From: Candidatus Undinarchaeales archaeon
Lineage (GTDB): Archaea > SpSt-1190 > JASMDC01
NCBI GenBank assembly: GCA_030753015.1
Contig: JASMDC010000030.1
Location: forward strand, 1-43,225
DNA: 43,225 bases
Direction: 5' to 3'
The notes beneath the pieces are model-generated. The model made no database searches and was not told where the DNA came from. It was given only the letters and a program-made list of their open reading frames with translations. The position numbers and the translations under genes were made by a program. Below are positions 7,888 through 33,651 of the stretch, piece by piece (positions within the stretch are counted from its first letter, which is position 1; the number at the start of each line of letters is the position of its first letter).

Positions 7888-9219
7888 CTATTTATCGAGC
7901 ACCTGCTCCGGATCGTCCATCATCTCGATGAACCAGAGCACGGCAGGAAGGTTGTTATCGACCACATCGTCGATGTCCTCCTCGTCGGGATTGAACTGCG
8001 TGAAGGTGTTGCCCCATCCGCCTCCGCCTTCCAGCTCGACGGTGTAGGCGAGCATCCCCTTGGAGTCCGCCCAGTCGGTGTACGTACCGCTGGCCAGGGC
8101 CGTCCGGCCGCCGTGCATCACGTCGTACGGGCGCTCCATGAGCTCGCGCATCCCATTGCCGATGGCGCGGTAAAGCTCCTCACGCTCGCCATCCTCGGTG
8201 GTGTAGTCGGGGGCGTACTGGTACTCGCCACCATAGGAATGAAACGCCAGCGTCCCCTTGAAATCATGCTCGGCCACGAACTCGGCCATGGCCGTGGTCT
8301 CCTGCTCGCTCATGGCCTCGGGACCACGGTAGGTCTGGTGCCAGTAATTGCCGCTGGCACCGGGCTTGCCCCAGGCCTCCGAGAAGTTACGGTTGAGGTC
8401 CACACCATGGAGCGAGGACGACCTTTCGGCCCAGTTCCCCTCCTCGACGAGCTCGCTGTTATCGCGGGCGTTCTTGCGGTGGTCCGAGTCACCGTACCGC
8501 CGCACCTGCTCGGCCACGATCATCCCGCCATCGGTATTGAAGCTCGGGATTATCCAGGTGTCCCGGCTGTCCACCAACTTTGTGATATAGGCGTCCTTGC
8601 CGTAGCCGTCGACCATCGTCTTGGCCACGTCGAGGGGCACCTCCACCGCGATGGCCTCCCGGGCATGGAACTGGCCGACAAGTAGCACCTCGGTCCGCGC
8701 CTCGCGGTCCTTCACGCGAGCGTCGCTGCCGATGCGTATGGCGTAGATCGGATTACCGAGTCCACTCTTCCCGATGACCTCGACATGAGCGAGGTCCGGT
8801 GCCTTCTTCTCGAGAGCGTACAGTTCCTCGGCGACCTCCTCGGGGACGTGGTACTTGCCCAGACCACCGTCCCTGAGAGGCGAATCGGTGGGTATACGCT
8901 GCCAGGAACGGACATACTGTCCCTGCTCGACATACTTATCAAGGGCATCGTCACGGTCATAAGCGCCCCCTTCAGCGGGGAGCACCATCTCCTTGGGAAG
9001 CCGTATCTCGTAGTCGCCGAGGTCGATCCGGTAGTCGTCTGCCAGCTCGTGCTCAAGCAGCTCTTGGTGGGCGGGAGGCGTCGTTGCCGGATGGTCCGCC
9101 GCGTACGCTATTGGTGCGATAGCGGTGATGGCCGTGGCACCGAGGAGGGCATAGGTGGTGGCACGCTTCACCACACGGGCGAGCACACCCTCACCATCGC
9201 CGTCCCCGGCTTCTTCCAC
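7888..9219 (-). CDS. Secreted M14-family zinc carboxypeptidase (carboxypeptidase T-like)
   Basis: HAREA (His/Glu Zn ligands), GVDLNRNF, YRGP..SEQE, FHSYG, YTVEL; signal peptide ending AYA; leader motif IDLGDYEIRLP. Confidence 0.9.
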   Translation of the reverse strand: MEEAGDGDGEGVLARVVKRATTYALLGATAITAIAPIAYAADHPATTPPAHQELLEHELADDYRIDLGDYEIRLPKEMVLPAEGGAYDRDDALDKYVEQGQYVRSWQRIPTDSPLRDGGLGKYHVPEEVAEELYALEKKAPDLAHVEVIGKSGLGNPIYAIRIGSDARVKDREARTEVLLVGQFHAREAIAVEVPLDVAKTMVDGYGKDAYITKLVDSRDTWIIPSFNTDGGMIVAEQVRRYGDSDHRKNARDNSELVEEGNWAERSSSLHGVDLNRNFSEAWGKPGASGNYWHQTYRGPEAMSEQETTAMAEFVAEHDFKGTLAFHSYGGEYQYAPDYTTEDGEREELYRAIGNGMRELMERPYDVMHGGRTALASGTYTDWADSKGMLAYTVELEGGGGWGNTFTQFNPDEEDIDDVVDNNLPAVLWFIEMMDDPEQVLDK

Positions 9220-9263
9220 GGCCTAAGTCCCCTGTTTCCCTTTGATCCCCTTTCTAATCGGAC

Positions 9264-10964
9264 TTACTCGTCGTCCCAGAAGGTCTCGAGCTCGTCGGTC
9301 TTGTTGGTGACCACCCACTCGTTCGGCGAGACCTCTTCAAGGTGGTACCCGTTCTTGCCGAACCGGGATACCTCCACCTTGTCCTTGCCGTCATCCAGCT
9401 TCCAGATCTCTTTCTCTCCCATAGCCTTGATGCTTTTGAGCACGGGGATGAAGTCCTTGATGCGGCGCTTGTGCGTGAGGTCGACGGCCTCCTCCTCGGG
9501 GCCGTTGTGCTTGATGTACAGATCGCCCTCGTTGAAGGCGACAGCATAGTGGTTGTCGTCCTCCTTGACGATCTTACCCTGAGAACCCTTGAAGGACACC
9601 TCCCAGCCGGAGTCGAAGATGTAACTGTCACCATCGTGGATGAAGGCAGTGCCCTCGATGGTGGTCTTGACCTCGGGCTTCTCGTGGTAGAGCGAGAAGA
9701 GGAAGTTGGAACCCACCCAGAGGGCGGCGCCGGCGGCGGCCACGGGCACGCTGGAGACAGGCCACGCCTTGGTGGCGGCCACGGTCCCCGAGTAGGTTCC
9801 CAGGTAGACGCCGCTGCCGATGGACGACTCCACGCCCATGATCTGCCAGAAGTTCTCCGAGTAGTCGTCGTGCTCGTGCTCCTTCTTGTTGATGATCTGA
9901 TCGTGGATGGCTAAGTTGGCCTTACCGCTCATTGTACCGGAGATGGCGCTGGCCACGGTGGCCGCGCCGTAGATGCCGATGAACGCGTAACCGGGGTTCT
10001 CCCCTAAGTGCTTGAGGATGTCCGGGTGGAGCCCAAAGTAGCTGGCGCCGGTAACGGTGCCCAGCCCGGCCACGTAGAGATTGACCTTCTTTAGTTCCTC
10101 CATAGGTTTCTCGGAGTTGACGGCGTTGTCGACGACGCTTCCAAGGAAGCTCTCGCCGATAATGCCAAGGGCGGGGCTGCCGATGTTGCCGATGGAGGTG
10201 ATGGTTGAGGCGATGCCGTAAGCAGCACCCTGCTCCCACAGCTTGGGGGTGATGACGCCCAGGAGCATGGCCGCACCGACGTTCCCCATAAGGTCGCCGA
10301 CCTTAAGGACGGCGTACTCAGGGTCCTCCTTGAACAGACGGTAAAAGACCTTGAACTTGTCCATGAAGGACTTCTCGTCCATCTGGTACATCTCGAGGGA
10401 GAGATCGTCAGGGATGCCGAAGAAGCTCTTGAAGTCCTCGTTGAAACCGAACTCCTCGAACTCAACGGTCTCTTTGAGATTGAAACCGTTCCCCTTGAGG
10501 TACTCCTTGAGGCCAGGGTCAGCGTCATCGGGGACCGGCAGTTTCTTGAGGCCGATTAGAGAGCCGAAGAACTTGCCCTCCCCCCGCTCGGTGATGACCT
10601 CCGTACGGTAGGCCATGGCCGGGTGGAAGGCGGGATCCTTTACGTCATACGCCGTAAAGACCGCATCCTTACCGGCGGCCGCAGCGACGCGGTAGGCGTC
10701 CACGTGCATGCCCTCCTCGTCGGTGTGGTACACCACGGAGAACCGCGCACCGTCGTACCCGGCGTTCACCAGGTCCATGTACTGGTCCTCCAGCCCGAAG
10801 TTGGCCTTCGCGAACTCGAGATTGTTCGGGTTCAGCTGGAACTCGTCGTACTGCGCTCCCGCTACGAAGAGCGGATTCGCGTCGAGCTTGCGTGTAAGAA
10901 TCTCAGAGGCAGTGTTGTTCTCCTCTTGGAAATCCTCTTCGGCGAGGACTGCTGCATCATACAT
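9264..10964 (-). CDS. Hypothetical protein with a central multi-helix hydrophobic region and acidic soluble termini
   Basis: Long ORF with host codon usage; likely start ATG 10964 (about 26 nt from the minus-strand TTTTTAAA box) or 10982; several Gly/Ala-rich hydrophobic helices in the middle. Confidence 0.8.
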   Translation of the reverse strand: MYDAAVLAEEDFQEENNTASEILTRKLDANPLFVAGAQYDEFQLNPNNLEFAKANFGLEDQYMDLVNAGYDGARFSVVYHTDEEGMHVDAYRVAAAAGKDAVFTAYDVKDPAFHPAMAYRTEVITERGEGKFFGSLIGLKKLPVPDDADPGLKEYLKGNGFNLKETVEFEEFGFNEDFKSFFGIPDDLSLEMYQMDEKSFMDKFKVFYRLFKEDPEYAVLKVGDLMGNVGAAMLLGVITPKLWEQGAAYGIASTITSIGNIGSPALGIIGESFLGSVVDNAVNSEKPMEELKKVNLYVAGLGTVTGASYFGLHPDILKHLGENPGYAFIGIYGAATVASAISGTMSGKANLAIHDQIINKKEHEHDDYSENFWQIMGVESSIGSGVYLGTYSGTVAATKAWPVSSVPVAAAGAALWVGSNFLFSLYHEKPEVKTTIEGTAFIHDGDSYIFDSGWEVSFKGSQGKIVKEDDNHYAVAFNEGDLYIKHNGPEEEAVDLTHKRRIKDFIPVLKSIKAMGEKEIWKLDDGKDKVEVSRFGKNGYHLEEVSPNEWVVTNKTDELETFWDDE

Positions 10965-10987
10965 GAAGCCAACGGGCGCCATCGTCG

Positions 10988-11004
10988 GTTTAAAAAAGGT
11001 TTTC
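10988..11004 (-). promoter_or_regulatory. Archaeal BRE/TATA promoter
   Basis: Minus strand GAAAACCTTTTTTAAAC upstream of ATG 10964. Confidence 0.6.
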
Positions 11005-11277
11005 CTACGCGAACCGGAAAACTCGTGTGTTACTACCCTTGAGACACGTCACAAATCAAGAAAAGGAAGGGCATTTCCACCAGAGATAGGGTGGTTCACG
11101 AAAATACGGTCTGGATCGGAATGCCGTGTCACCGCCGAGTAGGAACACAAGCCAGGTCAAGTATCATCACAGAACGGGCCCGCAGGACTCCGCTCCGGGT
11201 TAAGAATTATTTCAATTATCCTTGAATGGTTGGACCATAAGGAGTATGAGAGGCGTTTCAAATACTAGAGAAGGTAT

Positions 11278-13746
11278 CTAGGCAGCCGCCTCGGCGCCCT
11301 CAGGTGTACCCTCGCCTGACGTCTCGCCCTCGTCCTCTTTCTTCGTGATCTGGAAGTGGAAGAGCGATCGCGTCGACTGCCAGCGGATTCCGCTCTGCAT
11401 CCCCTGGTACATGTGGAAGGCCTCGGTCTGGTACTCGATGAAGGGATCCTTCTGTGCGTAAGCCCGGAGGTGGACACCGCGCTTCATCTCGTCCATGCCC
11501 AGAAGGTGATCCTTCCATGACATGTCTGCGGCGTGCAGGAGGACCTGTCGCTCCACCTGCCCGATTATCTCCGCCCCGACCTCAGCCTCCCGCTCGTGGT
11601 AGCGTTTCATGGCCTCGTTCGTGAGGTTCTCGGTCAGCTCGTCGGCGTTCTTGACCGAGCCAACGTTCAGGTCGGCCACGTCGATGCCGAAGACGGCCTG
11701 GCAGTTGTAGGTGAACTGCTTCTCGAGGAACTCGTTCTCCCACTGATGGGGCTTGGGGCCCTCAGCGGTGAAACTCTCAACTACTTCCTCTGCCGTCCGC
11801 TCGATGACGTTGTACACGTCCTGCTTCAGGTCAGGCCGCTCAAGGATTACGTTGCGGTCGTCGTAGAATATCCCTCGCTGTGTGTTCATGACCTCGTCGT
11901 ACTTCAGCAGGTTCTTGCGCATCTCGAAGTGCATGCCCTCGACCTTCACCTGCGCCTGTCGGACGACCTTGTCGATGAGCTTGCCCGATAGCGGCTCGTC
12001 CTTGTGGACCCCCGAGAAGAACTTATCAATCTTCTCCGGCCCGTAGAACCGCAGCAGCTCGTCCTCAGCGGACAGGTAGAACCGACAGGAACCGGGATCC
12101 CCCTGGCGGCCCTCACGTCCCAGGAGCTGGTCGTCGATGCGACGTGAGTCATGACGCTCGGTACCGATCACATGGAGACCTCCGATGTCGGCCACGCCCT
12201 CACCGAGCTTGATATCGGTACCGCGACCGGCCATGTTCGTGGCCACGGTCACAGCACCCTTCTGCCCGGCCTGGGCGATGATATCGGCCTCCTGCTTGTG
12301 GTGCTTGGCATGAAGCACCTGGTGGTCGATGCCACGGGCGATGAGCATATCGCTAAGGTGCTCGGACACATCGATGGAACGGGTGCCCACGAGCACGGGG
12401 CGGCCTGCCTCGTGCTGGGCCACGATGTCGTCGACGATCGCGTCGTACTTCTCCTCCGCGGTGCGGTATATCAGGTCCTGCTGGATGTCGCGCTGCATGG
12501 GCTCGTTCGTGGGGACCTGGACGACGTCCATGCCGTAAAGGGAGATGAACTCGCCCTCCTCGGTCTTTGCGGTCCCGGTCATGCCCGAGACGCGGTCGTA
12601 CATCCTGAAGAAGTTTGGGAACGTGATGGAGGCGTAGGTCTGGGAGGGCTCGCGGACCTTCATGTCGGTCTTACCGGTCGCCAGCATGTCGTTGTTGGCC
12701 TCTTTCGCCTCCAGGGCCTCGTGGAGCCCGGCCTCGTATCGCCTGCCGTGCATGAGGCGCCCGGTGAACTCGTCGACGATGAGCAGCTCGCCGTCGGAGA
12801 CCACGTAGTTCTTGTCCTTGGTGAAGAGAGAGTGTGCGGCGATGCACTGGCGTGCTGAGTGATAGAGGTGCATGGTCCGCTCGTCCGTGGGCGAGTCCAC
12901 TCCGAGGGCCTTGGCCAGCTTGTCATCCCCCCGCTCGGTGAAGAAGGCGAGATGGTCCTTCTCGTGCACCTCGTAGTCGCGCCCGGGCTCGAAGTCGCGG
13001 ACGATACGGTCCATGATGAGGTACTCGCGGGCCGTAGTGCCGGTGCGTCCGGAGATGATAAGAGGCGTCCTGCCCTCGTCGATGAGGATGGAGTCCACCT
13101 CGTCGATGATGGCGTAGTGCATGCCCCGCATGACCCGATCCTCGGGTCGCCGGACCATGTTGTCTTTGAGGTGGTCGAACCCGAACTCGTTGTTCGTCCC
13201 GTAGGTGATGTCCGCCTGGTAGGCGGCCTTGCGGTCCTCGGGGGACTCGTCATGCTGGATGCATCCCACCGACATCCCCATGAACTCATAGATGGGGGCC
13301 ATCTCCTCGGCATCGCGGCCGGCCAGGTAGTCGTTGACGGTGATGACGTGGACGCCCTTGCCCTCAATGGCATGGAGGTAGGCCGGGAGTGTCGCGACCA
13401 GAGTCTTGCCCTCGCCTGTCTGCATCTCGGCGATACGCCCTTCGTGAAGGACCACACCTCCCTTGATCTGGACATCGTAGTGGCGCATCCCGGTAACGCG
13501 GTTGCTTGCCTCGCGCACGGCGGCATAGGCTTCGGGCATGAGGTCGTCCAGGCTCTCGCCGGCAGAATAACGGTCCCGGAACTCGTCGGTTTTTCCCGCA
13601 AGCTCGTCATCGGAGAGGGTAGTCATCTCATCAGCGTAGCTGTTGACCTCCTCGACGATGCCGTCCAGGCGCTGCCGCTCGCGGTGGTTGTACGAGAAGA
13701 AGGACTTCACTCCGTCGTATAATCGATCGAGCAGCCCGTCCTCCAT
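11278..13746 (-). CDS. secA: Protein translocase ATPase SecA (no C-terminal Zn-binding motif)
   Basis: MRHYDVQ, AEMQTGEGKTL (Walker A), VTVNDYLA-like, YGTNNEFGFD, IIDEVDSILIDEGRTPLIISG, GMTGTAKTE, ATNMAGRGTDI, GTERHDSRRIDDQL.GR.GRQGDPG, YAQKDP. Confidence 0.97.
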   Translation of the reverse strand: MEDGLLDRLYDGVKSFFSYNHRERQRLDGIVEEVNSYADEMTTLSDDELAGKTDEFRDRYSAGESLDDLMPEAYAAVREASNRVTGMRHYDVQIKGGVVLHEGRIAEMQTGEGKTLVATLPAYLHAIEGKGVHVITVNDYLAGRDAEEMAPIYEFMGMSVGCIQHDESPEDRKAAYQADITYGTNNEFGFDHLKDNMVRRPEDRVMRGMHYAIIDEVDSILIDEGRTPLIISGRTGTTAREYLIMDRIVRDFEPGRDYEVHEKDHLAFFTERGDDKLAKALGVDSPTDERTMHLYHSARQCIAAHSLFTKDKNYVVSDGELLIVDEFTGRLMHGRRYEAGLHEALEAKEANNDMLATGKTDMKVREPSQTYASITFPNFFRMYDRVSGMTGTAKTEEGEFISLYGMDVVQVPTNEPMQRDIQQDLIYRTAEEKYDAIVDDIVAQHEAGRPVLVGTRSIDVSEHLSDMLIARGIDHQVLHAKHHKQEADIIAQAGQKGAVTVATNMAGRGTDIKLGEGVADIGGLHVIGTERHDSRRIDDQLLGREGRQGDPGSCRFYLSAEDELLRFYGPEKIDKFFSGVHKDEPLSGKLIDKVVRQAQVKVEGMHFEMRKNLLKYDEVMNTQRGIFYDDRNVILERPDLKQDVYNVIERTAEEVVESFTAEGPKPHQWENEFLEKQFTYNCQAVFGIDVADLNVGSVKNADELTENLTNEAMKRYHEREAEVGAEIIGQVERQVLLHAADMSWKDHLLGMDEMKRGVHLRAYAQKDPFIEYQTEAFHMYQGMQSGIRWQSTRSLFHFQITKKEDEGETSGEGTPEGAEAAA

Positions 13747-13770
13747 CAAGTTGGCCTCGGCCCCGTACGG

Positions 13771-13786
13771 CCTTAATAAAGGTTTC
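13771..13786 (-). promoter_or_regulatory. Archaeal BRE/TATA promoter of secA
   Basis: Minus strand GAAACCTTTATTAAGG about 27 nt upstream of the secA ATG; no SD visible. Confidence 0.7.
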
Positions 13787-13821
13787 TCTGCGCGGGACTG
13801 GAAAACGGCATACGTAGGCCC

Positions 13822-15645
13822 TCAGCATGCCTCGATGCGGGTCACGTACTCGTACCCCTTACTGGTGTGCACGGGGATGAGCGGGTACATCTCGACAGGC
13901 ACCTCGGTATCGCCCCGCACACGCACGACCTGGCCACGTGAGCGCACTTTGTACGCGGGCCGGTCGGCCGTATCGGTCGTGGCATGCGCGAGGAGAAGAT
14001 ACATGCCGGCGTCAACCTCGTGGAACTCGTACGTGCCCTCCTCGTCGGCGACCACGGTGACTGTTGAGCCCGGATAGCCATCCAGGGGCACCATGTGAAG
14101 GCGGATGGCACGAGGCGGTACACCGTCCACATAGGTGAGTGTTCGCTCGCCCACCGCTTTCGTACGCTGATCACCGGTGCACGATATCCTGTCTTTGACG
14201 TACACACGGCCATGCACGCGGCCCTTGGTACCCAGTTCGACATCCTTTGTGAGATGGCCTGACACCTCGACACGCTCGATGAGCCGACCGAGTCCGGGCG
14301 GGCGACTTGCCTCCACGATAAGTGTGTGCTCGCCACAGGGCACCTTTTTCCGCTCAAGGCGCCCTCCCTCGAAGGGATGGAGACAGGTGTCCAGCCACGC
14401 TTGACCGTCCACGGGAGCGTTCCCAGGTCCGGTGATGGTGAGCTCAAGATCGCAACCACCGGTCCCGCACAGGTCATCCACGGTCACCGGATGCTCCTGG
14501 CCGAACCGGGCGTAGGGGTCCACGCCTGTGAGGTAGGACTCGAGCACGAAGGCGAACTCCAGCGGTCGTCCCTCGGTCCGGACGCCCATTGCCACCGGTT
14601 TAAGGTCACGTAGGACCATCATCACGTCATACTGGGCGGTGTAGCTCACGTTGTACCGGCTGAGGCAGACTGGTTCATCGGCATCACGTCGGTCGATGAA
14701 CGGGAACGGTACCGGCACGTACTCCACATGCTTCGTGCTCTCCTGCTCGGTACGGGGATTGGCCAGCAGGGTCATGTCGACACGCTCGCGCACCATCTCC
14801 ATGGACCACTCGATATCCGGCTCGTCCTTTGAAGCACTGCGCTGCCGCTGGAGCTCCTTGGCCACCGACAGTTGTGCGTTCTCCACGAAGGGCCGGGCCA
14901 TGTCACGCTTGGTGGCGATGATACGCTGCTTCCGGCACGCCATGGTCTCTCCGATGCCGCCGGGCGGGCTGGGGATACGGTCGTCATTGATCATGCCCGA
15001 GAGGAGATTGCGCTCCATGTACCGCTCCTTCTCGTACATCTCGAGATAGGCCTTTGCCCGGGACCACAGGGTTCGAAGACGCAGTGGGAGGGTGATGGTC
15101 ATATCCTCCACCGACCGTGTCGCCTCCTCGTCCCCCTCGAGGTGATATGTGAGCTCGAGCGTCGCCTCGACTCCCTCTTCCTGCAGCTTCGCTGTGACCC
15201 GTGGTGCGCCGAAGACGACCTGGGCCTTTTCGCCTGCACGGATCGCCTCGAGGCGCGGGGTCAGCCGCCGTGTCGCCTCCTGTGAGAGGAGGCCCTCCAT
15301 GACCTGTACCGTGGGGAAGAGCACCATGCGGCCCTTCTGGAGATAGACGGGGCGCTTGACCACCACAGGACCCGGGAGCGAGTTGGTGGTGTAGCCGCCG
15401 CGCCGTCCCAGCTCATACACGGACTCCTCCACGGAGTCGCGGAGGGCGCTCTCGATGATTTCCGAGAGGTCACGCAGACGGTCCACGGTCGCTCTCGTCT
15501 CCCCCGCTTCGGCCCGGACCGTGCGGTCGGTCCGGCTCCCACGCAGGACGTAGGATACGATCACAAGAACAACGAGGGCGATAGCGATTAGCCCGAAGAG
15601 GCTTACCTGACCACGTCCACGGCCCAACACAATCCGGCCGCGCAT
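13822..15645 (-). CDS. Large prepilin-like protein with a class III signal peptide and C-terminal beta-sandwich domains
   Basis: GRGRG|QVSLFGLIAIALVVLVIV; YELGRRGGY segment reminiscent of DPANN pilin-like proteins; C-terminal ADEEGTYEF..V.AG.Y carboxypeptidase-regulatory-like repeat; TGATG overlap with the upstream gene. Confidence 0.7.
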   Translation of the reverse strand: MRGRIVLGRGRGQVSLFGLIAIALVVLVIVSYVLRGSRTDRTVRAEAGETRATVDRLRDLSEIIESALRDSVEESVYELGRRGGYTTNSLPGPVVVKRPVYLQKGRMVLFPTVQVMEGLLSQEATRRLTPRLEAIRAGEKAQVVFGAPRVTAKLQEEGVEATLELTYHLEGDEEATRSVEDMTITLPLRLRTLWSRAKAYLEMYEKERYMERNLLSGMINDDRIPSPPGGIGETMACRKQRIIATKRDMARPFVENAQLSVAKELQRQRSASKDEPDIEWSMEMVRERVDMTLLANPRTEQESTKHVEYVPVPFPFIDRRDADEPVCLSRYNVSYTAQYDVMMVLRDLKPVAMGVRTEGRPLEFAFVLESYLTGVDPYARFGQEHPVTVDDLCGTGGCDLELTITGPGNAPVDGQAWLDTCLHPFEGGRLERKKVPCGEHTLIVEASRPPGLGRLIERVEVSGHLTKDVELGTKGRVHGRVYVKDRISCTGDQRTKAVGERTLTYVDGVPPRAIRLHMVPLDGYPGSTVTVVADEEGTYEFHEVDAGMYLLLAHATTDTADRPAYKVRSRGQVVRVRGDTEVPVEMYPLIPVHTSKGYEYVTRIEAC

Positions 15646-25625: not shown

Positions 25626-25633
25626 CGGGCCGC

Positions 25634-27181
25634 TCACTCTTTGCCCTGCTGCGACTCCAGGTAGATCTGGAGCCACAGAGGGAGCTCGAAGGCCTCCTCG
25701 ATGGTGGGGTTCCGCTTCTGCATCAGCTCGTCCCACGACGTGTCCTCTGCGAACCCGGTGGCCTCGTACAGCTGCTTGTAATGATCGTACTCCCGCTGCA
25801 CGCTGGGGACGTAGATGTGGAGCCCCGTTGCAGTGCCATGGGACTGGGCGTTGTGCTGCTCGGCAACGACCACCTGTCCGATGGACTTTATCACCTTGTT
25901 GGCAGCATCGCGCACTGCGGGTTCGTACTTCTCGTTGGCCGCGAGCCGCTCGGCCAGGTCACCCAGGTCCACGAGGGGCTCCGGGAAACCGAGCAAAGGA
26001 TTGGTGCCGAAGTGAAGGCTTGCGTCGTTGGCCTTGTTGAACTCCTCCATGGGGACCTTCGATCCGAGCAGAGCATCGGCCAATCCATCCACGGCCTCGG
26101 CCACCTTGGGCATCTTGGCCACCTCGGTGGCAGAGAGTGTCCTGAGGTTCTGCTGGTCGTTCTCGGCCTCCTTGACGATGAGGTAGCTCATCAGCTTGGG
26201 CGAGAGCTCGGGGCGCGGGCCGTCCTTGAAGGCCTTGGAGTACTTCTCCATGACCACAAGGGCACGGTTGCCCATGATGCCCTCGTAGGGCCAGCCCTCG
26301 GCGCCCTCATTCTCCTCGCTGGCCACCAGGAAGTCGGTGACGCTCCGTACTTGGTAGGCGCCCTCGGCCGATGCCATGAGGCACGCGTCGTACCCGAGCA
26401 CGTCGATCTTGACGCCCGTCTTCTGCTGGACCTTGCCCAGAGCCTCCTGGACCTGTGCCCAAGTCATGGAATCGGTACCCGCGGAATCATCGATAATCGA
26501 GCCGGTCCAGCCCATACCGTGGTCGGAGATGACGAGCATGTAGTTCTTCGCAGGGAAGTTCTGGACGCCCCACTCCACGAAGTCCTGGAGGTTCGCAGGA
26601 TCGGCCATGTCGATCTGACCTAGCTCACCCAGAACGGGGGAGTTGAGCTCGCCCTTAGTACCATCCTTCTGGAGGTGATAGCGCCGGGCACCGGTCCACG
26701 CTCGCTTGCCCATGTCGATCTTGCCGTCTGCCTTCTCGCCGCGGTCGAGCTGGACGATCACGTCCGCGTTGTCGGTGGAGCCTATCTTCTCCATATCGTC
26801 CACATCGGCGACCTGATAGGCCTCAAGATTGTTGTCCGCGGCGGAGTAGACGAGGATGGTCCACTCCTTGCCTTCGGCCTGGTCGTCCTGGGCAGCGTAG
26901 TTGAGCGGGATGGACGACGGGAGAGTGACCTGATAGTCACCCATATCGATGACGTTGCCTTGTTTGGCCTGTTCGGTCTCGATGACGTACGCCGGCTGAG
27001 GGTCCGTTCCGGGAGGCGGGAGCGTGTTGGGGAGCATGCCGCCACCGATGCCGACAATAGCACCACCGATGGTGGCTACAAGTCCAAGCCCTGCGGCGGC
27101 GTAGGTCGCCACCTGCTTGGTAGTAAGCCCCTCTTCCTTCTCGTTCGCTTCCGGTTCAGGTTCCTGCTCGACGTACATCAT
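25634..27181 (-). CDS. Clostripain-family (C11) cysteine peptidase with conserved leader, copy 3
   Basis: KEWTILVYSAADNNLE, VQLDR, FPAKNYMLVISDHG.GW (catalytic His), GYDACLM (catalytic Cys), ASEENE..EGWPY. Confidence 0.92.
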   Translation of the reverse strand: MMYVEQEPEPEANEKEEGLTTKQVATYAAAGLGLVATIGGAIVGIGGGMLPNTLPPPGTDPQPAYVIETEQAKQGNVIDMGDYQVTLPSSIPLNYAAQDDQAEGKEWTILVYSAADNNLEAYQVADVDDMEKIGSTDNADVIVQLDRGEKADGKIDMGKRAWTGARRYHLQKDGTKGELNSPVLGELGQIDMADPANLQDFVEWGVQNFPAKNYMLVISDHGMGWTGSIIDDSAGTDSMTWAQVQEALGKVQQKTGVKIDVLGYDACLMASAEGAYQVRSVTDFLVASEENEGAEGWPYEGIMGNRALVVMEKYSKAFKDGPRPELSPKLMSYLIVKEAENDQQNLRTLSATEVAKMPKVAEAVDGLADALLGSKVPMEEFNKANDASLHFGTNPLLGFPEPLVDLGDLAERLAANEKYEPAVRDAANKVIKSIGQVVVAEQHNAQSHGTATGLHIYVPSVQREYDHYKQLYEATGFAEDTSWDELMQKRNPTIEEAFELPLWLQIYLESQQGKE

Positions 27182-27189
27182 TAACCCTC

Positions 27190-28689
27190 CTACTGGCCTC
27201 CCTTATTCTGATTCGCCCGCTCCTGGAGGAACTCGTCCCACTGGGTGTCCTCTGCGAAGTCGAGCTCACCGTACTTATCACCGTCGAAGGAGTCCTGGCC
27301 CTCTCCAGGTGGACCGTTGAAGGGCACGTATATGTGCAGCCCGTGGGCGTTGGGATGGCTGGTCTCGTTGTGCTGCTCGGCGACGACAACCTGGTCGACG
27401 GCCTCGATGACCTTTGCCGCGGCCTCGCGCACATCAGCGCCGTAGGCACCATTGGCAGAGACCTTCTCGGCCAGCTCTACTGCGTCCACGAGCGGCTCCT
27501 CAAACCACCACTGCCTCCCAAAGTGGAAGCTCTCCTCGGCGATCTTGTTGAACTCGCTGATGGGCACCTTGGACCCTCGCAGCGCCTCGGCGAATCCGTC
27601 CATGGCCTCGGCGACCTTGGGCATCTTCTCCACCTCGACGGCAGAGAGAGTAGGGAGGTTCCGCTGGTCGTTCTCGGCCTCCTTGACGATGAGGAAGCTC
27701 ATGAGCTTCGGAGTGAGCTCTGGGCGCTTACCGTCCTTGAAGGCCGTGGAGAACTTCTCCATGACCACCAGGGCCCGGTTGCCCATGATACCCTCGTAGG
27801 GCCAGCCCTCGGCACCCTCCAGCTCCTGGCTCGCCACCAGGAAGTCGGTGACGCTCCGTACCTGGTAGGCGCCCTCGGCCGACGCCATGAGGCAGGCGTC
27901 GTACCCGAGCACGTCGATCTTCACACCGGTGCGCTGCTGGACCTTGCCCAGTGCTTCCTGGACCTCGACCCAGGTCATCTCGTGGTCCCCGGAGGAGTCG
28001 TCCCCGATGGCCCCGGTCCATCCGGCGCCGTGGTCCGAGATGATGAGCATGTAGTTATCGGCGGGGTAGTTGTTCACACCCCACTCGAGGAAGTCCGCGA
28101 GCACGTCGGGATCGGCCATGTTGACCTGCCCGAGCTCGCCCATCATGGGGGAGTTGAGCTTCCCTTTCTCGGCGTCCTTCTGGAGGTGGTAGCGCCGGGC
28201 GCCGGTCCAGGCCCTCTCTCCCGAGTCGACCTGGCCCTCGGCGACCGTGCCGCGGTCGACTTGGATCACGACGTCCACGTACTTGTCAGAACCGACCGTC
28301 TCCATGTCGTCGTTGTCGGCCATGAGATACGGCTCGAGGTTGTTGTCGGCGGCCGAGTAGACGAGGACGGTCCACTCCTTGCCCTGCGTACGGGCGTCCT
28401 GGTCCGCATAGGTCAGGGGGAGGGACGAGGGGAGGGTTACCTTGTAGTCGCCCATGTCGATGACGTTACCCTGAGTGCTCTGTTCGGTCTCGGTCACATA
28501 GGCCGGACGCGGGGTCGTGTCCGGGGGCGGCTGGAACGGCGGAAGGATGTTGATCGCACCGCCGATGGCGGCTACGAGCCCAAGGCCCGCTGCGGTGTAG
28601 GCCGCGACCTGCTTGAACGTAAGCCCGTCCTCTTCTCGTTCCGGCGCTTCATCGTGCTCGTTCTCATTCTCGATATACATCATGATCAC
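27190..28689 (-). CDS. Clostripain-family (C11) cysteine peptidase with conserved leader, copy 2
   Basis: KEWTVLVYSAADNNLE, YPADNYMLIISDHGAGW, GYDACLM, GLHIYVP; GGTGA SD. Confidence 0.92.
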   Translation of the reverse strand: MIMMYIENENEHDEAPEREEDGLTFKQVAAYTAAGLGLVAAIGGAINILPPFQPPPDTTPRPAYVTETEQSTQGNVIDMGDYKVTLPSSLPLTYADQDARTQGKEWTVLVYSAADNNLEPYLMADNDDMETVGSDKYVDVVIQVDRGTVAEGQVDSGERAWTGARRYHLQKDAEKGKLNSPMMGELGQVNMADPDVLADFLEWGVNNYPADNYMLIISDHGAGWTGAIGDDSSGDHEMTWVEVQEALGKVQQRTGVKIDVLGYDACLMASAEGAYQVRSVTDFLVASQELEGAEGWPYEGIMGNRALVVMEKFSTAFKDGKRPELTPKLMSFLIVKEAENDQRNLPTLSAVEVEKMPKVAEAMDGFAEALRGSKVPISEFNKIAEESFHFGRQWWFEEPLVDAVELAEKVSANGAYGADVREAAAKVIEAVDQVVVAEQHNETSHPNAHGLHIYVPFNGPPGEGQDSFDGDKYGELDFAEDTQWDEFLQERANQNKGGQ

Positions 28690-28699
28690 CTGTTGAACA

Positions 28700-30175
28700 T
28701 CACGGACCCGACGGGGTCTGCTTCATCTTCTCTGCCCGATCCTTGAGCCACTCGTCCCACTGGGTGTCCTCGGTGAACTCGAGCTGCTCGTACGCCTCGC
28801 CGTCGTAGGACCCTGCCCACCAGCTCGACGGGACGTAGATGTGCAGCCCGTGGGAGCCGGGATGGGTCGAGTTGTGGTGCTCGGCCACAATCACCTGGTC
28901 CACGGCCTCGATGACCTTGTTGGCGGCGAGCTTCACGTCCTTGCCATACTGGTCGTTTGCGGCGAGGTTCGTGGCCAGGTCGACCACGTCCACCAGGGGC
29001 GAGCCCCAGCCGTAGTCCTGGCTGTTGCCCTCAATGGTATTGAACTCGGTGACAGGGACCTCGGACGCACGCAGGGCGACGGCGAGCCCGTTCACGGCTG
29101 ATGCCACCTTGGGCATCTTCTCGAGCTCTGTTGAGGAGAGCGTGTCGAAAGTGGCGGTATCATTGGCGCCTTCCTTGACGATGAGGTAGGAGTAGAGCTT
29201 GGGCGTGAGCGCGGGGCGGTCGGTGTCCTTGAAGGTGCGGTTGAACTTCTCCATGACGTCCAGTGCCCGCTGGCTGATGATACCCTCGAAGGGCCAGCCC
29301 TCGACGCCCTCCAGCTCCTCGCTGGCCACCAGGAACCCGGCCGCGTCGCGGACCTGATAGGCGACCTCGGTCGATCCCATGAGGCAGGCATCGAATCCGA
29401 GGATGTCGATCTGTGCACCAGTGCGCTCCTTGACCCGCTCGAGCGCCTGGTCGAGCTCAGGCGTGGACATCTGTCCGGCGTGGTGTGAGCTGTCGTCGAT
29501 GAAGCCCTCCCAGCCCGAGCCGTGGTCGGCGATGATGAGCATGTAGTGCTTGGCGGGGAAGTTCTTGACGGTGAACTCCACGAACTCCGCCAGTGTCTCG
29601 GGAGCGGCCATGTCCACCTGTCCGAGCTCCGCTAGCACCGGTGAGTTGTAGTTGACCGGGTCGGTATCCTTCTGGATGTGGTAGCGCCGGGCACCGGTCC
29701 AGTCGCCGCCCTGGGGCGTGTCGGCGGTGTATCCGCGGTCCACCTGGACCACGACGTCCATGTAGTCGTTGGATCCCAGCTTCTCCATGTCGTTGATGTC
29801 GGTGAGCTGGTCGTTCTCGAGGTTGTTGTCGGAGGCGGAGTAGATCATGACGGTCCATTCCTTGGCCTCAGCGGGAACCCGGGCGTCCTCGCCGTAAACG
29901 AGAGGGATGTCCTTGGGCAGAGTGACCTGGTAGTCGCCCATGTCGATGGTGCCGCCCTTGACGGCGTCCTGCACTTCCGTGACATAGGCGGGCCGGTAGG
30001 GTCCAGTCCCCGACGCGGGGGTCGCGTCCATGGGTCCCACGGCCGTGCCGATGGCGCCACCTACGGCGGCTGCGAGGCCGAGGCCCAGTGCGGCGTACAC
30101 GCCCACCTTCTTGAGCGTGAGCCCTTCCTTCTCGTTCTCTATTTCCGTTTCGTACTCCGTCTCCATTATCATCAT
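28700..30175 (-). CDS. Clostripain-family (C11) cysteine peptidase with conserved leader, copy 1
   Basis: KEWTVMIYSASDNNLE, FPAKHYMLIIADHGSGW, GFDACLMG, GLHIYVP. Confidence 0.92.
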   Translation of the reverse strand: MMIMETEYETEIENEKEGLTLKKVGVYAALGLGLAAAVGGAIGTAVGPMDATPASGTGPYRPAYVTEVQDAVKGGTIDMGDYQVTLPKDIPLVYGEDARVPAEAKEWTVMIYSASDNNLENDQLTDINDMEKLGSNDYMDVVVQVDRGYTADTPQGGDWTGARRYHIQKDTDPVNYNSPVLAELGQVDMAAPETLAEFVEFTVKNFPAKHYMLIIADHGSGWEGFIDDSSHHAGQMSTPELDQALERVKERTGAQIDILGFDACLMGSTEVAYQVRDAAGFLVASEELEGVEGWPFEGIISQRALDVMEKFNRTFKDTDRPALTPKLYSYLIVKEGANDTATFDTLSSTELEKMPKVASAVNGLAVALRASEVPVTEFNTIEGNSQDYGWGSPLVDVVDLATNLAANDQYGKDVKLAANKVIEAVDQVIVAEHHNSTHPGSHGLHIYVPSSWWAGSYDGEAYEQLEFTEDTQWDEWLKDRAEKMKQTPSGP

Positions 30176-30203
30176 CTCCCGTCCCTGTCATATGATCCGG
30201 TAA

Positions 30204-31622
30204 TCATTGCTCCCCTTCCACTCCGTCGGGATTATCCGTCCCTGTGGGCGGTGGAGCGGAACCGGGATCGGACTGCAGAGCGCGGTCCAACTGGATAATG
30301 CCGTGGCCGTAATACTGATCCCAGCCGCTGCTGCCGCGGTCCAGCGCGGTGGTCTCAAGCGCGGTGCGCACCCGTTCTGGCGTGTTGAAATCGCTGGAAT
30401 AGCCGATCAGCACGGCGGCCGCCCCTGCCACGTGCGGCGCCGCCTGGGAGGTGCCGCTATTGTAGATGTAGGTGTCGTCAAGGCCGGTGGAGCCGATGTC
30501 CGATCCGGGCGCGGCCAGGTCTACAAAATCGCCGTAAGTGGAGAAACGAGAGCGGTTGTCGCTGGAGTCCGTAGACGCCACTGCAATCGTGTTCTCGTAG
30601 GCAGCCGGGTAGTCGATGGTGTTGCTGCCGGAGTTGCCGGCGGCAGTCACCACCGTCACGCCGTGCTCCACCGCATAATTGACGGCGTCTTCCAACGCCC
30701 TGGAGTTAAAAGGGGCTCCCAAGCTCAGATTAATGACGTCCGCACCGTTATCCGTGGCGAAGATAATGCCGTCGACGATGGCGGAGTACCTGCCGGCGCC
30801 GTTCGAACCCAGCACCTTGACCGGCATAATGCGCGCCCCCCACGAGACGCCGGCGACGCCCTCCCCGTTGTTGCTGACCGCCGCTGCAATTCCCGCCACG
30901 TGCGTACCGTGCCCCTGATCGTCCTGCGGGTTGTCGTCCCGGTTGACAAAGTCGTATCCAGGCACGATCTTGGCTGCCAGGTCAGGGTGGTCGAGGTCAA
31001 CCCCGGTGTCCAACACGGCGATTATGACCGAGTTCGATCCGGTACTCAGGTCCCACGCCTGCGGAGCCCGGATGCGCTGCGGGCCGTACTGCAAAGACCA
31101 ATATGTATCGTTGGGCGTTATGTCGAAAGCATGGGCCACGTAGTTCAACTCGGCATATTCCACCAGCCCTGAGTTGTTCAGCGCATCCAACAGTTTCTTG
31201 GCGTCACCATCGCCGGCGCGCAGCAGCTGAACGTCGAGGGAGGAGATCTCGCCCTCGATCCGCGCATCCAGGCCATCGATGAGCGCATCCGAGTCGCTCT
31301 TGTACAAATCTCTACTGAACTTCACCAGCACTTCGTCCGGCACGTACCCCTCGCTGTACACCATGGGGGTGCCCTCGGGAAGGGTGACCTGGTAGTCGCC
31401 CATGTCGATGACGTTCCCCTGGCTGCTGTGCTCGATCTCGGTCAGATAGGCCGGCCGCGGGGTCGTGCCCGGCGGGGGCGGGATGATACTTATGGCCCCG
31501 CCAATGGCGGCCACAATGCCCAGGCCCAGGGCGGCGTACCCGCCGACCTTCTTGAGCGTGAGCCCTTCCTTCTCATTCTCCAAGTCCGTTTCGTACTCCG
31601 TCACCATGATCATCACTCCCAC
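30204..31622 (-). CDS. S8 subtilase (thermitase-like) with the same conserved leader
   Basis: Triad IAVLDTG / QGHGTHVAG / SGTSQAAPHVAG, oxyanion AAGN, prodomain YVPDEVLVKF...VEYAELNY; exact start among 31622/31613/31607 uncertain. Confidence 0.95.
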   Translation of the reverse strand: MGVMIMVTEYETDLENEKEGLTLKKVGGYAALGLGIVAAIGGAISIIPPPPGTTPRPAYLTEIEHSSQGNVIDMGDYQVTLPEGTPMVYSEGYVPDEVLVKFSRDLYKSDSDALIDGLDARIEGEISSLDVQLLRAGDGDAKKLLDALNNSGLVEYAELNYVAHAFDITPNDTYWSLQYGPQRIRAPQAWDLSTGSNSVIIAVLDTGVDLDHPDLAAKIVPGYDFVNRDDNPQDDQGHGTHVAGIAAAVSNNGEGVAGVSWGARIMPVKVLGSNGAGRYSAIVDGIIFATDNGADVINLSLGAPFNSRALEDAVNYAVEHGVTVVTAAGNSGSNTIDYPAAYENTIAVASTDSSDNRSRFSTYGDFVDLAAPGSDIGSTGLDDTYIYNSGTSQAAPHVAGAAAVLIGYSSDFNTPERVRTALETTALDRGSSGWDQYYGHGIIQLDRALQSDPGSAPPPTGTDNPDGVEGEQ

Positions 31623-32671
31623 TCCACCCAGTCGGGATTGTAGGTGCCCAGGGGCAGGTCGTCCCCGAACATCGATTGTGGTGAATACCCTAGTTGCGAA
31701 TAAGCGACATCCCGGGGGATGAGCAGATCGCGAACGTTGTTATCGGTGAGATAGGCCTTACCGTCGATGATCGTCTCGGTCCAGGCGTGACCTCCGCCCT
31801 TCATCGTCCCGAGCACCACCACCGAATCGTAACCCTTGGCCTCGAGCAGCGAGTTGGAGGCGAGTGCGTAGTCCTCGCAGTCCCCCCTGCCGAGGGAAGT
31901 GAGGAAGTGCTCCGGGTTCTGCCAGTAGTCGGTGTGACCGAGATGCTCGGCGTCGAAGAAGTACTTCCCCATGAGCGGTTTGCCGTCGGCGAACCGCATG
32001 AACTTGATACCGGATATGGTGTTCTCGCCGATATTTATTGAGCTGGGAAGGTCGCGGACCTCGAGGTTGTTGGCGTAGCCCTGGACGATCTCACTGTCCG
32101 GTGTGATGTAGGACGAGGGATCGTTGGGCATGTAGAAGCCCCGCTGTTCGCCGATCTCCTGGTGCCTGAGCGAGGGGAAGCCGTCGGGGATGCCATCGCT
32201 GTTCGCGTCAGCGTTATCGGGGTGGAGGTCGTAGGCGTCAGCGAGCCCGTCACCGTCCCGGTCGGGGAGCATGAAGTCGGGGTCCTTGCCGTCGATGATA
32301 CCGTCAGCGTCCACGTCAGGATTGGACCAATCCCAGTCCCGGCCGTCGAGGATGCCGTCCCCGTCGATGTCGGGATTACCGGGGTGAGGGTCGATGGAGT
32401 CGTAGAGGTGGTCGCCGTCGGCGTCCGCCATGGCCTGTTCGGGAGAGAGCGTGGGAACGCTGTCGTCGCCCAGCACACGGGTCTTGGGGGGCCCGGGCTC
32501 GGCCTCCTTGCCGAGCAGTGCACCAAGGACGAGCCCACCGGTGATGGTGAGGCCGACCGCTATGAATCCCTTGGCCACAGATTCGGCGTTGAGGTCCTCG
32601 GTGACCGTGTAGCCGTCGGCCGCCGTGGCGGTCCCGGCCTCATCGGTCTCGAGGTCGATGTCCATCGCCAT
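31613..32671 (-). CDS. Membrane-anchored transglutaminase-like cysteine protease with Asp-rich Ca-binding repeats
   Basis: TM helix; D.DGDG..D repeats; DYWQNP..FL...GDCEDYAL, GGHAWTE, downstream D (Cys-His-Asp triad). Confidence 0.82.
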   Translation of the reverse strand: MAMDIDLETDEAGTATAADGYTVTEDLNAESVAKGFIAVGLTITGGLVLGALLGKEAEPGPPKTRVLGDDSVPTLSPEQAMADADGDHLYDSIDPHPGNPDIDGDGILDGRDWDWSNPDVDADGIIDGKDPDFMLPDRDGDGLADAYDLHPDNADANSDGIPDGFPSLRHQEIGEQRGFYMPNDPSSYITPDSEIVQGYANNLEVRDLPSSINIGENTISGIKFMRFADGKPLMGKYFFDAEHLGHTDYWQNPEHFLTSLGRGDCEDYALASNSLLEAKGYDSVVVLGTMKGGGHAWTETIIDGKAYLTDNNVRDLLIPRDVAYSQLGYSPQSMFGDDLPLGTYNPDWVEWE

Positions 32672-33651
32672 CAGTTCCCCTCCCGTACTTCGAGCTCATA
32701 TCCACTCTCGTCGATCTCGTACACCTGGACGCCGTACACGTCCTCGAAGGAGGGGATGATGTGCATGTCCTTGCCCTGGCCTCGCATGTGGAGCGACGCC
32801 TCGAAGTCCTCGATGACCTTGGACGGATCGTTCTGGATATCCTGGTAGAACTGCTGGGCGGCTTTCTTGAGCTCGCCCTTGAAGTAGGGGACACGGTCGC
32901 GTTCGAATGTCTTGACCGCCTCCTCGCCCTCGAAGGCAGCGAGCGTGGCCTCGTCCTTGTACTGCTTCTGGACGGGTTCGAGGTACTCGTTCAGTGTCGC
33001 CTGGACCACCTGGGTGCCCACATATTCGAGCGTTGTCTTCAACGCGCCCTCACGCGAGGAGAACTGCATCCAAATGGCGTCCTTCTCCTGCTCGGAGAGC
33101 GGGCCGTTACCTCCGTTGATCCTGGAGGTCTCGATGGTCTCGATAAGCTTGTGGTAATCGGTCCGGGCATCGAACTGCGCCAGGTTCTCGACGCTGTAGG
33201 ACACCTGGCCGTGGATGTACGCTTCCTTGGCGGCGTCGGCCTTCTGACCGGTGTAGGTTGCGAGCTGCCCGACGGGGATGTCGATGTCGACCGTCTGACG
33301 TTCAAGGGACACCTCCTCGTAGCTGGAGAATGGGACTGGGAGACGAAGGACGAACTTGCTTCCATCGGTCTCGTTCTCGATGTAGCGGGTGCCACCTTCG
33401 AAGTCGAGGATGCCCCGTTCATCGAGCTGGACGGACTCGTGGATGATGGCGCCGGTGTTGGGAGGGACGATACCGACCGTGGACACCATACCGAAACCGA
33501 CCCCGAGGGAGGCGAGACCGAGGCCGATGTACTTGCCGACGGTCATGGCCTGCGCGCCCAGCGGCAGGTCCGAGAACTTAGTTACTTCCTCCTCACGGTT
33601 GTCCGGTTGTAGGTCTTCCTCTTTGAGCTTCTCGTCCTCAAGGTTCCTCAT
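32671..33651 (-). CDS. Hypothetical membrane-anchored protein, first gene of the protease operon
   Basis: Acidic N-terminus, KYIGLGLASLGVGFGMV hydrophobic segment, helical C-terminal part; TGATG overlap with the next gene. Confidence 0.8.
   Translation of the reverse strand: MRNLEDEKLKEEDLQPDNREEEVTKFSDLPLGAQAMTVGKYIGLGLASLGVGFGMVSTVGIVPPNTGAIIHESVQLDERGILDFEGGTRYIENETDGSKFVLRLPVPFSSYEEVSLERQTVDIDIPVGQLATYTGQKADAAKEAYIHGQVSYSVENLAQFDARTDYHKLIETIETSRINGGNGPLSEQEKDAIWMQFSSREGALKTTLEYVGTQVVQATLNEYLEPVQKQYKDEATLAAFEGEEAVKTFERDRVPYFKGELKKAAQQFYQDIQNDPSKVIEDFEASLHMRGQGKDMHIIPSFEDVYGVQVYEIDESGYELEVREGN

Follow-up and report, generated by a model that had tools for sequence, protein, structure and literature searches.

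SecA, a dispersed surface-protein cassette and a protease array: neighbouring, probably separate transcription units in a marine Undinarchaeales archaeon

Positions 7,888 to 33,651 of a contig from a Candidatus Undinarchaeales archaeon (JASMDC010000030.1, assembly GCA_030753015.1) encode, all on the minus strand, an array of peptidases, a giant secreted protein with murein-hydrolase domains, a pilin-like protein and its large partner, a SecA ATPase and a secreted carboxypeptidase. A first-pass annotation of the window (the entire 43,225-bp contig, C41 of the 117 contigs of a 3.85-Mb genome) had read these genes as one integrated system for contact, wall breach, export and digestion. On balance, we favour a different reading, in which a marine archaeon with a heavy investment in its cell surface has at least four separately transcribed units side by side in this stretch, and not one machine. 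The first unit would consist of a TrmB-family regulator followed by a seven-gene array (three C11 peptidases, an S8 subtilase, a transglutaminase-like protein, an anchored 326-aa protein and an unanchored HExxH protein), the second of a three-gene cassette, giant–951–609, the numbers being product lengths in residues, the third of SecA alone, and the fourth of a 572-aa gene together with an M14 carboxypeptidase. The novel items are an archaeal SecA and an expanded bacteriolytic cassette.

Four gaps (219, 190, 72 and 295 nt), every one of which holds a TATA-like element, set apart the array, the cassette, SecA and the pair of 572-aa and M14 genes; within the units, genes abut or overlap. The cassette recurs at about 20 dispersed loci: tblastn and blastp searches of the genome gave 17 giants, 20 951-type and 18 609-type genes, which together take up 190 kb (4.9% of the genome), and only the C41 copy lies near SecA or C11 genes. 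At these loci the 951-type gene nearly always touches or overlaps the 609-type gene, with a giant open reading frame (ORF) usually alongside. In an independently assembled congener (G001), the same stretch sits in a 136-kb contig, with 31 of the 33 window proteins in the same order at 61–98% identity. Synteny in relatives had been proposed as a check on the integrated system, and the order is indeed kept; however, the whole 43-kb contig is syntenic, its Rnf operon included, so that conserved order in the congener is uninformative on linkage. In the congener, SecA and the cassette are also parted by 7.4 kb of unrelated genes that lie on both strands (CpeT, a TSP3-repeat protein, a transglutaminase, an FG-GAP protein and DUF1838). 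A second SecA there has a helicase fragment, DUF302 and CinA as neighbours, and the array includes at least six C11 copies and an alpha/beta hydrolase, with no S8 within the region of synteny. When 20 ORFs further down the congener contig were scanned against Pfam, none proved to be a decisive archaeal hallmark. In every independent comparison available, the sub-blocks are unlinked, one of the outcomes that the first-pass annotation had said would speak against its proposal.

That all 13 genes form one integrated system, in which the pilin-like and immunoglobulin-like (Ig) proteins would grip prey, the giant would open its wall, SecA would export and the proteases would digest, is in our judgement very unlikely. 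The idea draws on products that are all extracellular or export-serving, on adjacent, co-oriented genes in an order kept in the congener, on the lack of an own wall polymer for the M23 and SLT domains to act on, and on RNA-library contigs that touch several of the genes. Yet four promoter-like gaps interrupt the series, some 19 other cassette loci have neither SecA nor C11 neighbours, the congener parts SecA from the cassette by its both-strand insert and keeps a second SecA among unrelated genes, its S8 is missing and its C11 number different, and the conserved order is weightless in a contig that is syntenic throughout.

Several points also count against the reading that we favour. All blocks are extracellular in role, lie on one strand and keep their order in the sole close relative, and the units may cooperate through some functional coupling, for example shared regulation or a SecA that favours these substrates. 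The promoters that the gaps would contain are read from motifs, the comparison draws on one relative genome, and gene calls for the genome-wide census come from a crude longest-ORF caller. In 3 of 3 RNA runs, which come from two studies, the 572-aa gene, SecA and the C11 genes are hit by RNA-library contigs that match the window at 100% identity; these are short assembled contigs with possible DNA carry-over that cannot rank expression or show operons. None bridges two genes, and the bins left uncovered include the 5' half of the giant gene and most of that for the 609-aa protein. At the level of single genes, the genome offers no bacterial-type SecY as a partner for SecA, its sole SecY being archaeal/Sec61-type, and the SLT-like domain of the giant falls below its cut-off (19.9 bits against 21.3, E 5.8e-4, model positions 3–110 of 117).

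Positions 7,888 and 33,651 do not delimit an island, as had been proposed. Between them we count 13 consecutive non-overlapping minus-strand ORFs (14 had been given); the minus-strand run extends past 33,651 through TrmB, GNAT-like, Ogg, NUDIX, second transglutaminase-like and PHP genes to the contig end at 43,199, and base composition along the window has no boundary in GC content or GC skew at 7,888–33,651. Because the run continues and the composition is unbroken, these coordinates mark no discrete island. A run-length statistic for co-orientation is unusable, since the crude ORF caller adds spurious opposite-strand ORFs, C41 included. Pfam names M14, SecA, M23, three C11, S8 and transglutaminase-like families in the stretch, and five genes (572, 609, 951, 471 and 326 aa) have no family assignment. 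Integrase and transposase families are absent from Pfam scans of the window ORFs, in line with the original description, and the window proteins are mostly acidic (pI 4–5).

The host is archaeal, as the first reading had it. The genome has four TBP genes (from eight TBP-domain matches), zero matches to sigma-70 region 2 across its 3.85 Mb, and a single, archaeal-type SecY whose nearest solved relatives are those of P. furiosus (5.1e-111) and M. jannaschii (1.2e-105) and eukaryotic Sec61; among 24 SecY matches at E ≤ 1e-10, no chain was recognised as bacterial. This SecY (C48:26676–28265, 529 aa) has an insertion of about 78 residues (query 326–402) between residues that align to M. jannaschii SecY 308 and 310, which we take to be in the external loop before transmembrane segment 8 and not in a cytosolic motor- or ribosome-binding loop. 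It is extremely improbable that C41 is a mis-binned bacterial contig, on which bacterial SecA, murein hydrolases and proteases would be nothing unusual. The families of SecA, the 572-aa gene, M23, C11 and S8 are typically bacterial, and the genome, at 98.9% completeness, has a CheckM-type contamination of 5% and an assembly in which 16S rRNA of either domain was not found, leaving it without rRNA placement. Mis-binning is contradicted by the lack of sigma-70, by the tetranucleotide make-up of C41, which does not stand out within the genome (rank 41 among the 79 contigs of at least 5 kb), by the same locus in the 136-kb contig of the congener, and by paralogs of the C41 cassette on at least 20 other contigs, including giant-family paralogs on the TBP-bearing contig C53. 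It is further contradicted by the class III signal of the 609-aa protein and the DPANN archaea among which its organism-named distant relatives fall, by the TATA-like element in front of SecA, and by a SecA clade that is at most 53% identical to any bacterial SecA found. DNA of the window is present in seawater/marine metagenomes of 11 studies. The phylum as sampled comprises 17 species; the genomes of this genus (3.6–3.8 Mb) are outliers in size, 3–6 times larger than those of the 15 other species (0.6–1.2 Mb).

The third unit contains the following elements.

11,278–13,749, minus strand: SecA preprotein-translocase ATPase of canonical type, from four Pfam domains and NCBIfam equivalog models
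13,773–13,780, minus strand: TATA-like element TTTATTAA, with GAAACC before it, read from the sequence

Judged by its domains and motifs, this protein is a genuine, canonical SecA with intact motor motifs, so that the original identification holds. All four Pfam domains are matched (SecA_DEAD 1.8e-121, PP_bind 5.2e-31, P-loop_SecA 3.6e-68, and SecA_SW 7.9e-57 over positions 1–200 of 200), and the scores against the NCBIfam equivalogs NF009538 (1008.8 bits, cut-off 814) and TIGR00963 (942.1 bits, cut-off 800) pass their cut-offs, while all four SecA2 models stay under theirs (TIGR04397 861.8 of 1085, TIGR03714 762.3 of 930, NF012136 642.6 of 1100, TIGR04221 573.3 of 725). The motor motifs GEGKT112, DEVD216 and TNMAGRGTDI504 are intact, and motif VI reads QLLGR, a variant found in 7 of 55 aligned rows, including Thermotogota and Bipolaricaulota SecAs; the names Walker A, Walker B and motif VI are presumably the right ones for these motifs. 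The SEC-C zinc tail that the bacterial matches carry is absent from this SecA.

A search of 5.8 billion clustered proteins gave just two close relatives, a 93% ortholog, labelled by its source as 'SecA [Methanopyri archaeon]', and a 63% paralog; all remaining relatives are bacterial and no more than 53% identical. A tree of 55 rows groups the window SecA and the two copies of the congener in one clade (SH-aLRT 100) on a long stem; no bacterial sister is supported, and the tree points to no donor. Of 401 archaeal genomes searched (268 genera), two score above the Pfam cut-off for SecA_SW, both of this genus, with two further matches below cut-off at 23.9 and 20.4 bits; within the phylum, 2 of 17 species have SecA. 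The second SecA of the congener (C36:3068–5542 of that genome) is 63% identical and lies on an 8-kb contig among unrelated neighbours, and no counterpart was found in the genome studied here. The identity of 93% between the orthologs of the two species, together with a paralog kept at 63%, fits purifying selection. The element TTTATTAA lies about 30 nt upstream of the SecA ATG at 13,746, the spacing expected of an archaeal promoter with a leaderless mRNA, and may well be such a promoter. RNA-library contigs 100% identical to SecA occur in all three RNA runs of the two studies, with DNA carry-over possible.

These data suggest that a bacterial-type SecA was acquired once, was then duplicated within the genus and came under an archaeal promoter. 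It would most likely power ATP-dependent post-translational export by acting on the resident archaeal SecY, and would serve an unusually large secretome in general. A SecA that is domesticated but repurposed or decaying, as a chaperone, an RNA helicase-like ATPase or neutral cargo that does not translocate through the archaeal SecY, is an unlikely alternative, for which one can cite the archaeal/Sec61-type nature of the only SecY, the missing SEC-C tail, the apparent lack of a second paralog in this genome, and the fact that none of the other 399 archaeal genomes searched has a SecA, so that the channel did not co-evolve with it. Against this alternative stand four intact domains and motor motifs, a score above the equivalog cut-off, an ortholog at 93% and a paralog at 63% that fit purifying selection, an archaeal-type promoter element upstream and RNA-library contigs in 3 of 3 runs.

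The export role proposed for this SecA can be set against two known arrangements. With bacterial housekeeping SecA it shares the DEAD-like first nucleotide-binding domain (NBD1), the preprotein cross-linking domain, NBD2 and the wing/scaffold, the Walker A/B motifs and motif VI, and a passing equivalog score; it differs in having an archaeal host, an archaeal/Sec61-type SecY as the sole channel, no SEC-C zinc tail, a TATA-like element and no sigma-70 promoter, and a long branch of its own without a supported bacterial sister. As in the SecA2/SecY2 systems of Gram-positive bacteria, there is a second SecA (in the congener) and SecA adjoins genes for very large surface proteins; unlike in those systems, the SecA2 models score below cut-off, there is no second SecY, the neighbours of the paralog are unrelated, and no Asp or Gtf partners were seen in Pfam scans of the window. 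According to the portions of reviews cited here, archaea lack a SecA homolog, and the motor of archaeal post-translational Sec export is unidentified (PMC13673990, PMC6098224). Literature phrase searches returned no report of an archaeal SecA.

The second unit, upstream of SecA, is the cassette.

13,822–15,651, minus strand: 609-aa type-IV-pilin-like protein, family P609, from an alignment and an AlphaFold2 (AF2) model
15,645–18,500, minus strand: 951-aa secreted multi-beta-sandwich 'stalk' protein with a Cys-rich knot, family I951, from an AF2 model and the Cys count
18,467–24,130, minus strand: 1,887-aa secreted giant protein, from Pfam M23, an SLT-like domain and the Cys count

The 609-aa protein had been called prepilin-like, which its family alignment supports. 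In all 16 members an R-G-Q motif (Gly14 invariant, Gln15 in at least 90%) is followed by a hydrophobic run of about 20 residues, a pattern that is, as far as the alignment goes, that of a class III (prepilin) signal, and eight Cys are invariant in the same alignment, the last residue included. The AF2 model (predicted local distance difference test, pLDDT, 84.9) has a 70-residue N-terminal helix (14–83), an alpha/beta domain and two transthyretin/CnaB-like beta-sandwiches, and the C-terminal domains match transthyretin-like folds (Z 10.9, root-mean-square deviation 1.5, 79 residues aligned); Foldseek and VIA matched only these C-terminal beta-sandwiches, the N-terminal domain being effectively outside the comparison. 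PDB sequence searches gave no usable relative for either the 609- or the 951-aa protein. A word-based homolog search with the 609-aa protein found only three close relatives, and a profile search gave 6,051 matches, mostly to the generic C-terminal repeat; the organism-named distant relatives of the N-terminal part, 2 of 10 looked up, are DPANN archaea. The family profile matches 26 stretches in this genome and 27 in the congener, with no match in the 15 other genomes of the phylum. The genome also has prepilin machinery, with four Peptidase_A24 and five T2SSE (PilB-type ATPase) matches over cut-off, none of them in the window; the cassettes on contigs C26 and C40 lie within about 3 and 15 kb, respectively, of a T2SSE ATPase.

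The protein thus shares with archaeal type IV pilin-like proteins a basic N-terminus, Gly then Gln and a hydrophobic stretch of about 20 residues that forms a long helix, and its genome has the A24 prepilin peptidases and PilB-type ATPases that such pilins use. It differs from them in its two transthyretin/CnaB-like C-terminal domains, its eight conserved Cys, its 950-aa partner and the lack of an assembly ATPase in the window. At 609 residues it is also, we presume, far larger than a typical pilin.

The 951-aa protein, rightly singled out as Cys-rich, has a signal helix and 26 Cys, and its AF2 model (pLDDT 83.8) is nearly all beta, with about nine beta-sandwich domains and a Cys knot. Foldseek searches with this model returned only generic MG/Ig chains (TM-score ≤ 0.15), including the neck of the grappling hook protein GhpA at a TM-score of 0.09, which we do not take as kinship. 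A structure-based screen for complexes, one of the checks suggested at the outset, predicts that the 951- and 609-aa proteins pair: the interface score ipSAE is 0.66 (0.69, 0.66 and 0.66 in separate runs) as opposed to 0.00 for the best of three controls, and the mark used for ipSAE is reached by 58 of 80 solved complexes and by 2 of 110 mismatched pairs. The runs have at least 74% of contacts in common, partner pLDDT is at least 74, and the predicted interface joins the C-terminal half of the 951-aa protein to the body of the 609-aa protein. Since neither has a solved relative by sequence, the score is not the memory of a known complex. The prediction supports the view that the two proteins bind each other, in which case a pilin-like 609 and a multi-Ig 951 would present or hold a giant, disulfide-rich secreted protein.

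As to the giants, contigs C22, C36, C38, C20 and C46 carry further giant ORFs of 2,000–3,300 aa beside cassette pairs, without the C-terminal region of the window giant; the set of cassette-associated giants is therefore larger than the 17 counted.

The window giant had been annotated as a murein hydrolase, an assignment that its domains make plausible. From N- to C-terminus the protein has a signal peptide, an M23 domain (aa 250–355), an SLT-like domain (about aa 425–533), CxxxC repeats, a Pro/Thr linker with N-x-T sequons and a conserved C-terminus of about 560 aa that is common to 16 paralogs; there are 95 Cys in all. The M23 match scores 39.4 bits (cut-off 28.7), with HRGID and HLH present, which we take to be the HxxxD/HxH zinc-ligand motifs of this family. 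The SLT-like region carries QESS, GIMQV and GYNRG, presumably the motifs of SLT lytic transglycosylases, and in the giant paralog on contig C21 the SLT match is over the cut-off (21.9 bits). Among the 16 other giants, five have M23, NlpC/P60 or SLT, three have FG-GAP, C-type lectin or Kazal domains, and eight have none that was recognised, so that murein-hydrolase domains occur in 6 of 17 giants with the window's own included.

It is plausible from these domains that the window giant is a wall-breaching enzyme. Mur_ligase_M and penicillin-binding protein (PBP) transpeptidase domains are absent from the 98.9% complete genome, which means that the substrate is not the organism's own wall; the organism would make neither murein nor pseudomurein, and the M23 and SLT-like domains would cleave bacterial peptidoglycan, in live cells or in debris. 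Bacteria-killing peptidoglycan hydrolases are already on record from archaea, and the portion of the source cited here interprets them as tools of conflict (Strock et al. 2025, PMC12352652); the same portion reports hydrolases in 175 of 3,706 archaeal genomes, 21 of which have more than one. The giants resemble those enzymes, as described there, in their bacterial-type catalytic domains (M23 included), in belonging to archaea without peptidoglycan, in their secretion signals and in bacteria as the presumed target. They differ from the modular proteins of that account, a catalytic plus a wall-binding domain, in being Cys-rich giants of 1,900–2,200 aa, six per genome, without a recognised wall-binding domain and tied to a pilin-like/Ig cassette. 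The novelty here lies in how many such giants one genome has and in their cassette-linked architecture; the supplementary genome list of PMC12352652 might include the lineage.

What the giants are for is a separate matter from their anatomy. It is possible, if somewhat unlikely, that they are competitive weapons, defences or scavengers of peptidoglycan debris, with no link either to the array of proteases or to a diet of live prey. The bacteria-killing archaeal hydrolases described in the cited part of PMC12352652 are a precedent for this, and hydrolase domains vary among the paralogs (M23, NlpC/P60, SLT or none) as they do in arms-race families, but the data fit killing and feeding alike, and the alternative concerns the purpose of the giants. 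Feeding on bacteria would be one such purpose. Its fullest form, a contact-dependent bacteriolytic predator or epibiont with about 20 interchangeable, pilin-anchored grappling-and-lysis cassettes (M23, NlpC/P60, SLT), SecA-driven export of the giants and proteases that digest the released material, we regard as quite unlikely. Literature phrase searches on predatory or bacteriolytic archaea returned nothing relevant.

The first unit comprises the array and the regulator gene directly upstream of it.

33,871–34,662, minus strand: TrmB-family transcription regulator, Pfam TrmB 3.9e-17
32,671–33,651, minus strand: 326-aa membrane-anchored protein, first gene of the array, from its acidic tail and anchor
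31,613–32,671, minus strand: membrane-anchored transglutaminase-like protein (cysteine-protease fold), Transglut_core 26.1 bits (cut-off 23)
30,204–31,622, minus strand: S8 subtilase with a fervidolysin-type prodomain, Pfam S8 4.8e-61
25,634–27,181, 27,190–28,689 and 28,700–30,175, minus strand: three tandem C11 (clostripain-family) cysteine peptidases, from Pfam
24,321–25,736, minus strand: 471-aa HExxH protein, putative zinc metallopeptidase, last gene of the array, from its motif

An eight-gene protease operon had been described here; the tight array of peptidases (three C11, S8, transglutaminase-like) is real, with seven genes and not eight, which abut or overlap from 33,651 down to 24,321. 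The C11 matches (2.7e-43, 8e-40 and 3.6e-42, or 138–149 bits against a cut-off of 25.8) come from copies that are 56–69% identical to one another, each with an acidic N-terminal tail, one transmembrane anchor and a single Cys. In the only copy that was aligned to clostripain (28,700–30,175 with 9cip_A), the His of ADHG and the Cys of FDACLMG match the catalytic residues. For the S8 subtilase the nearest NCBIfam model is mycosin (226 bits, cut-off 278.75). The first 105 or so residues (acidic tail, anchor and linker) are common to the S8 and the three C11 proteins and occur in only these 4 of 3,240 crude genome ORFs, which points to modules swapped within the array. Six of the seven array proteins begin with an acidic tail and one hydrophobic segment, and this suggests N-in/C-out anchoring; acidic tails, anchors and the shared N-terminal module fit proteases built for the cell surface.

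The seventh, the HExxH protein (HELQH...NEAMSE), has no Pfam or PDB match, no signal and no transmembrane segment, and matches the NCBIfam model MXAN_6640_HExxH weakly, at 24.3 bits and far under its cut-off of 140; its real start is probably Met38, at 25,625. The 326-aa protein has no Pfam or NCBIfam match, and a TATA-like TATATA lies about 108 nt upstream of its gene. TrmB is the best-conserved window protein in the congener (98%) and, by its position, a candidate regulator of the array. A second transglutaminase-like gene at 39,252–40,514 encodes a protein 40% identical to that at 31,613–32,671, with 26% Asp+Glu and thrombospondin-type-3-like Asp-rich repeats.

Together with the secreted M14 enzyme, the anchored peptidases would cut external protein to peptides and amino acids. 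C11 peptidases are likewise found in sediment archaea thought to degrade external protein (Thermoprofundales/MBG-D, PMC6461988; 'globupain', PMC10315481). Compared with the sets in the cited parts of these two papers, C11 and S8 here share one swapped anchor module in a tandem array that varies between two species, and the DNA of this organism was found in seawater metagenomes.

The fourth unit lies downstream of SecA.

9,264–10,982, minus strand: 572-aa protein, family unassigned, with Gly/Ala-rich, moderately hydrophobic middle segments, from the sequence
7,888–9,219, minus strand: secreted M14 carboxypeptidase, carboxypeptidase-T-like, Pfam Peptidase_M14 7.5e-51

The carboxypeptidase was correctly recognised at the outset. 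Its nearest solved chains are those of carboxypeptidase T (1.2e-25), its N-terminus is signal-peptide-like and ends in ...AYA/AD, and the copy of the congener is 93% identical; we take an M14 of the carboxypeptidase-T-like type to be a digestive enzyme and not a murein amidase. The 572-aa protein, by contrast with its first description as hydrophobic, has no segment that reaches the Kyte-Doolittle transmembrane threshold of 1.6, and it has no Pfam, NCBIfam or PDB match. Its homologs are 43–59% identical, and those named by source all come from bacterial metagenome-assembled genomes (Eremiobacterota, Xenobia, Vulcanimicrobiota, Armatimonadota and one Proteobacteria); the gene appears, from these matches, to be of bacterial origin. 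The homolog does not lie beside SecA or M14 in five metagenome loci, giving no sign of co-transfer with SecA. A match in the ESM Atlas (best feature score 0.84, pLDDT 0.39, TM-score ≤ 0.25) gave no lead. RNA-library contigs lie on the gene in 3 of 3 RNA runs. A TATA-like TTTTTTAAA at 10,989–10,997 lies 7–15 nt before its first ATG and about 27–30 nt before a second in-frame ATG (Met7), a spacing from which the real start may be Met7, on a leaderless mRNA.

The remainder of the window borders these units. Positions 1–4,897 carry an Rnf-type operon (RnfE/A-like, FMN-binding RnfG, RnfD and RnfC) with a divergent ApbE flavin transferase; Rnf is a ferredoxin-driven ion pump typical of anaerobic fermenters, and its operon is odd for an organism whose DNA occurs in seawater metagenomes. 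Next to it, at 4,902–6,229 on the minus strand, are three tandem small acidic paralogs of 143, 134 and 160 aa, 37–45% mutually identical, conserved in the congener and assigned to no family. As listed, the ORFs at 36,433–37,308 (2-thiouracil desulfurase family) and 37,032–37,682 (Ogg) share 277 nt; the start given for the former is probably too far upstream, and likewise that of RnfD (1,461–2,882), which overlaps RnfC.

A neat co-oriented 'island' can thus be an accident of neighbourhood. About 5% of the genome is given to some 20 pilin-like/Ig/giant cassettes, with murein hydrolases in a third of the giants, which points to a way of handling bacteria by an archaeon that is not described in the literature searched. 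If the bacteriolytic reading were true, a captured SecA on a Sec61-type channel would give Archaea their first SecA-dependent secretion pathway. That a SecA is intact, conserved and probably expressed in an archaeal genus whose only SecY is of archaeal type amounts to a natural experiment, and it raises the question of whether a bacterial motor can drive a Sec61-like channel, which would be directly testable with purified parts.

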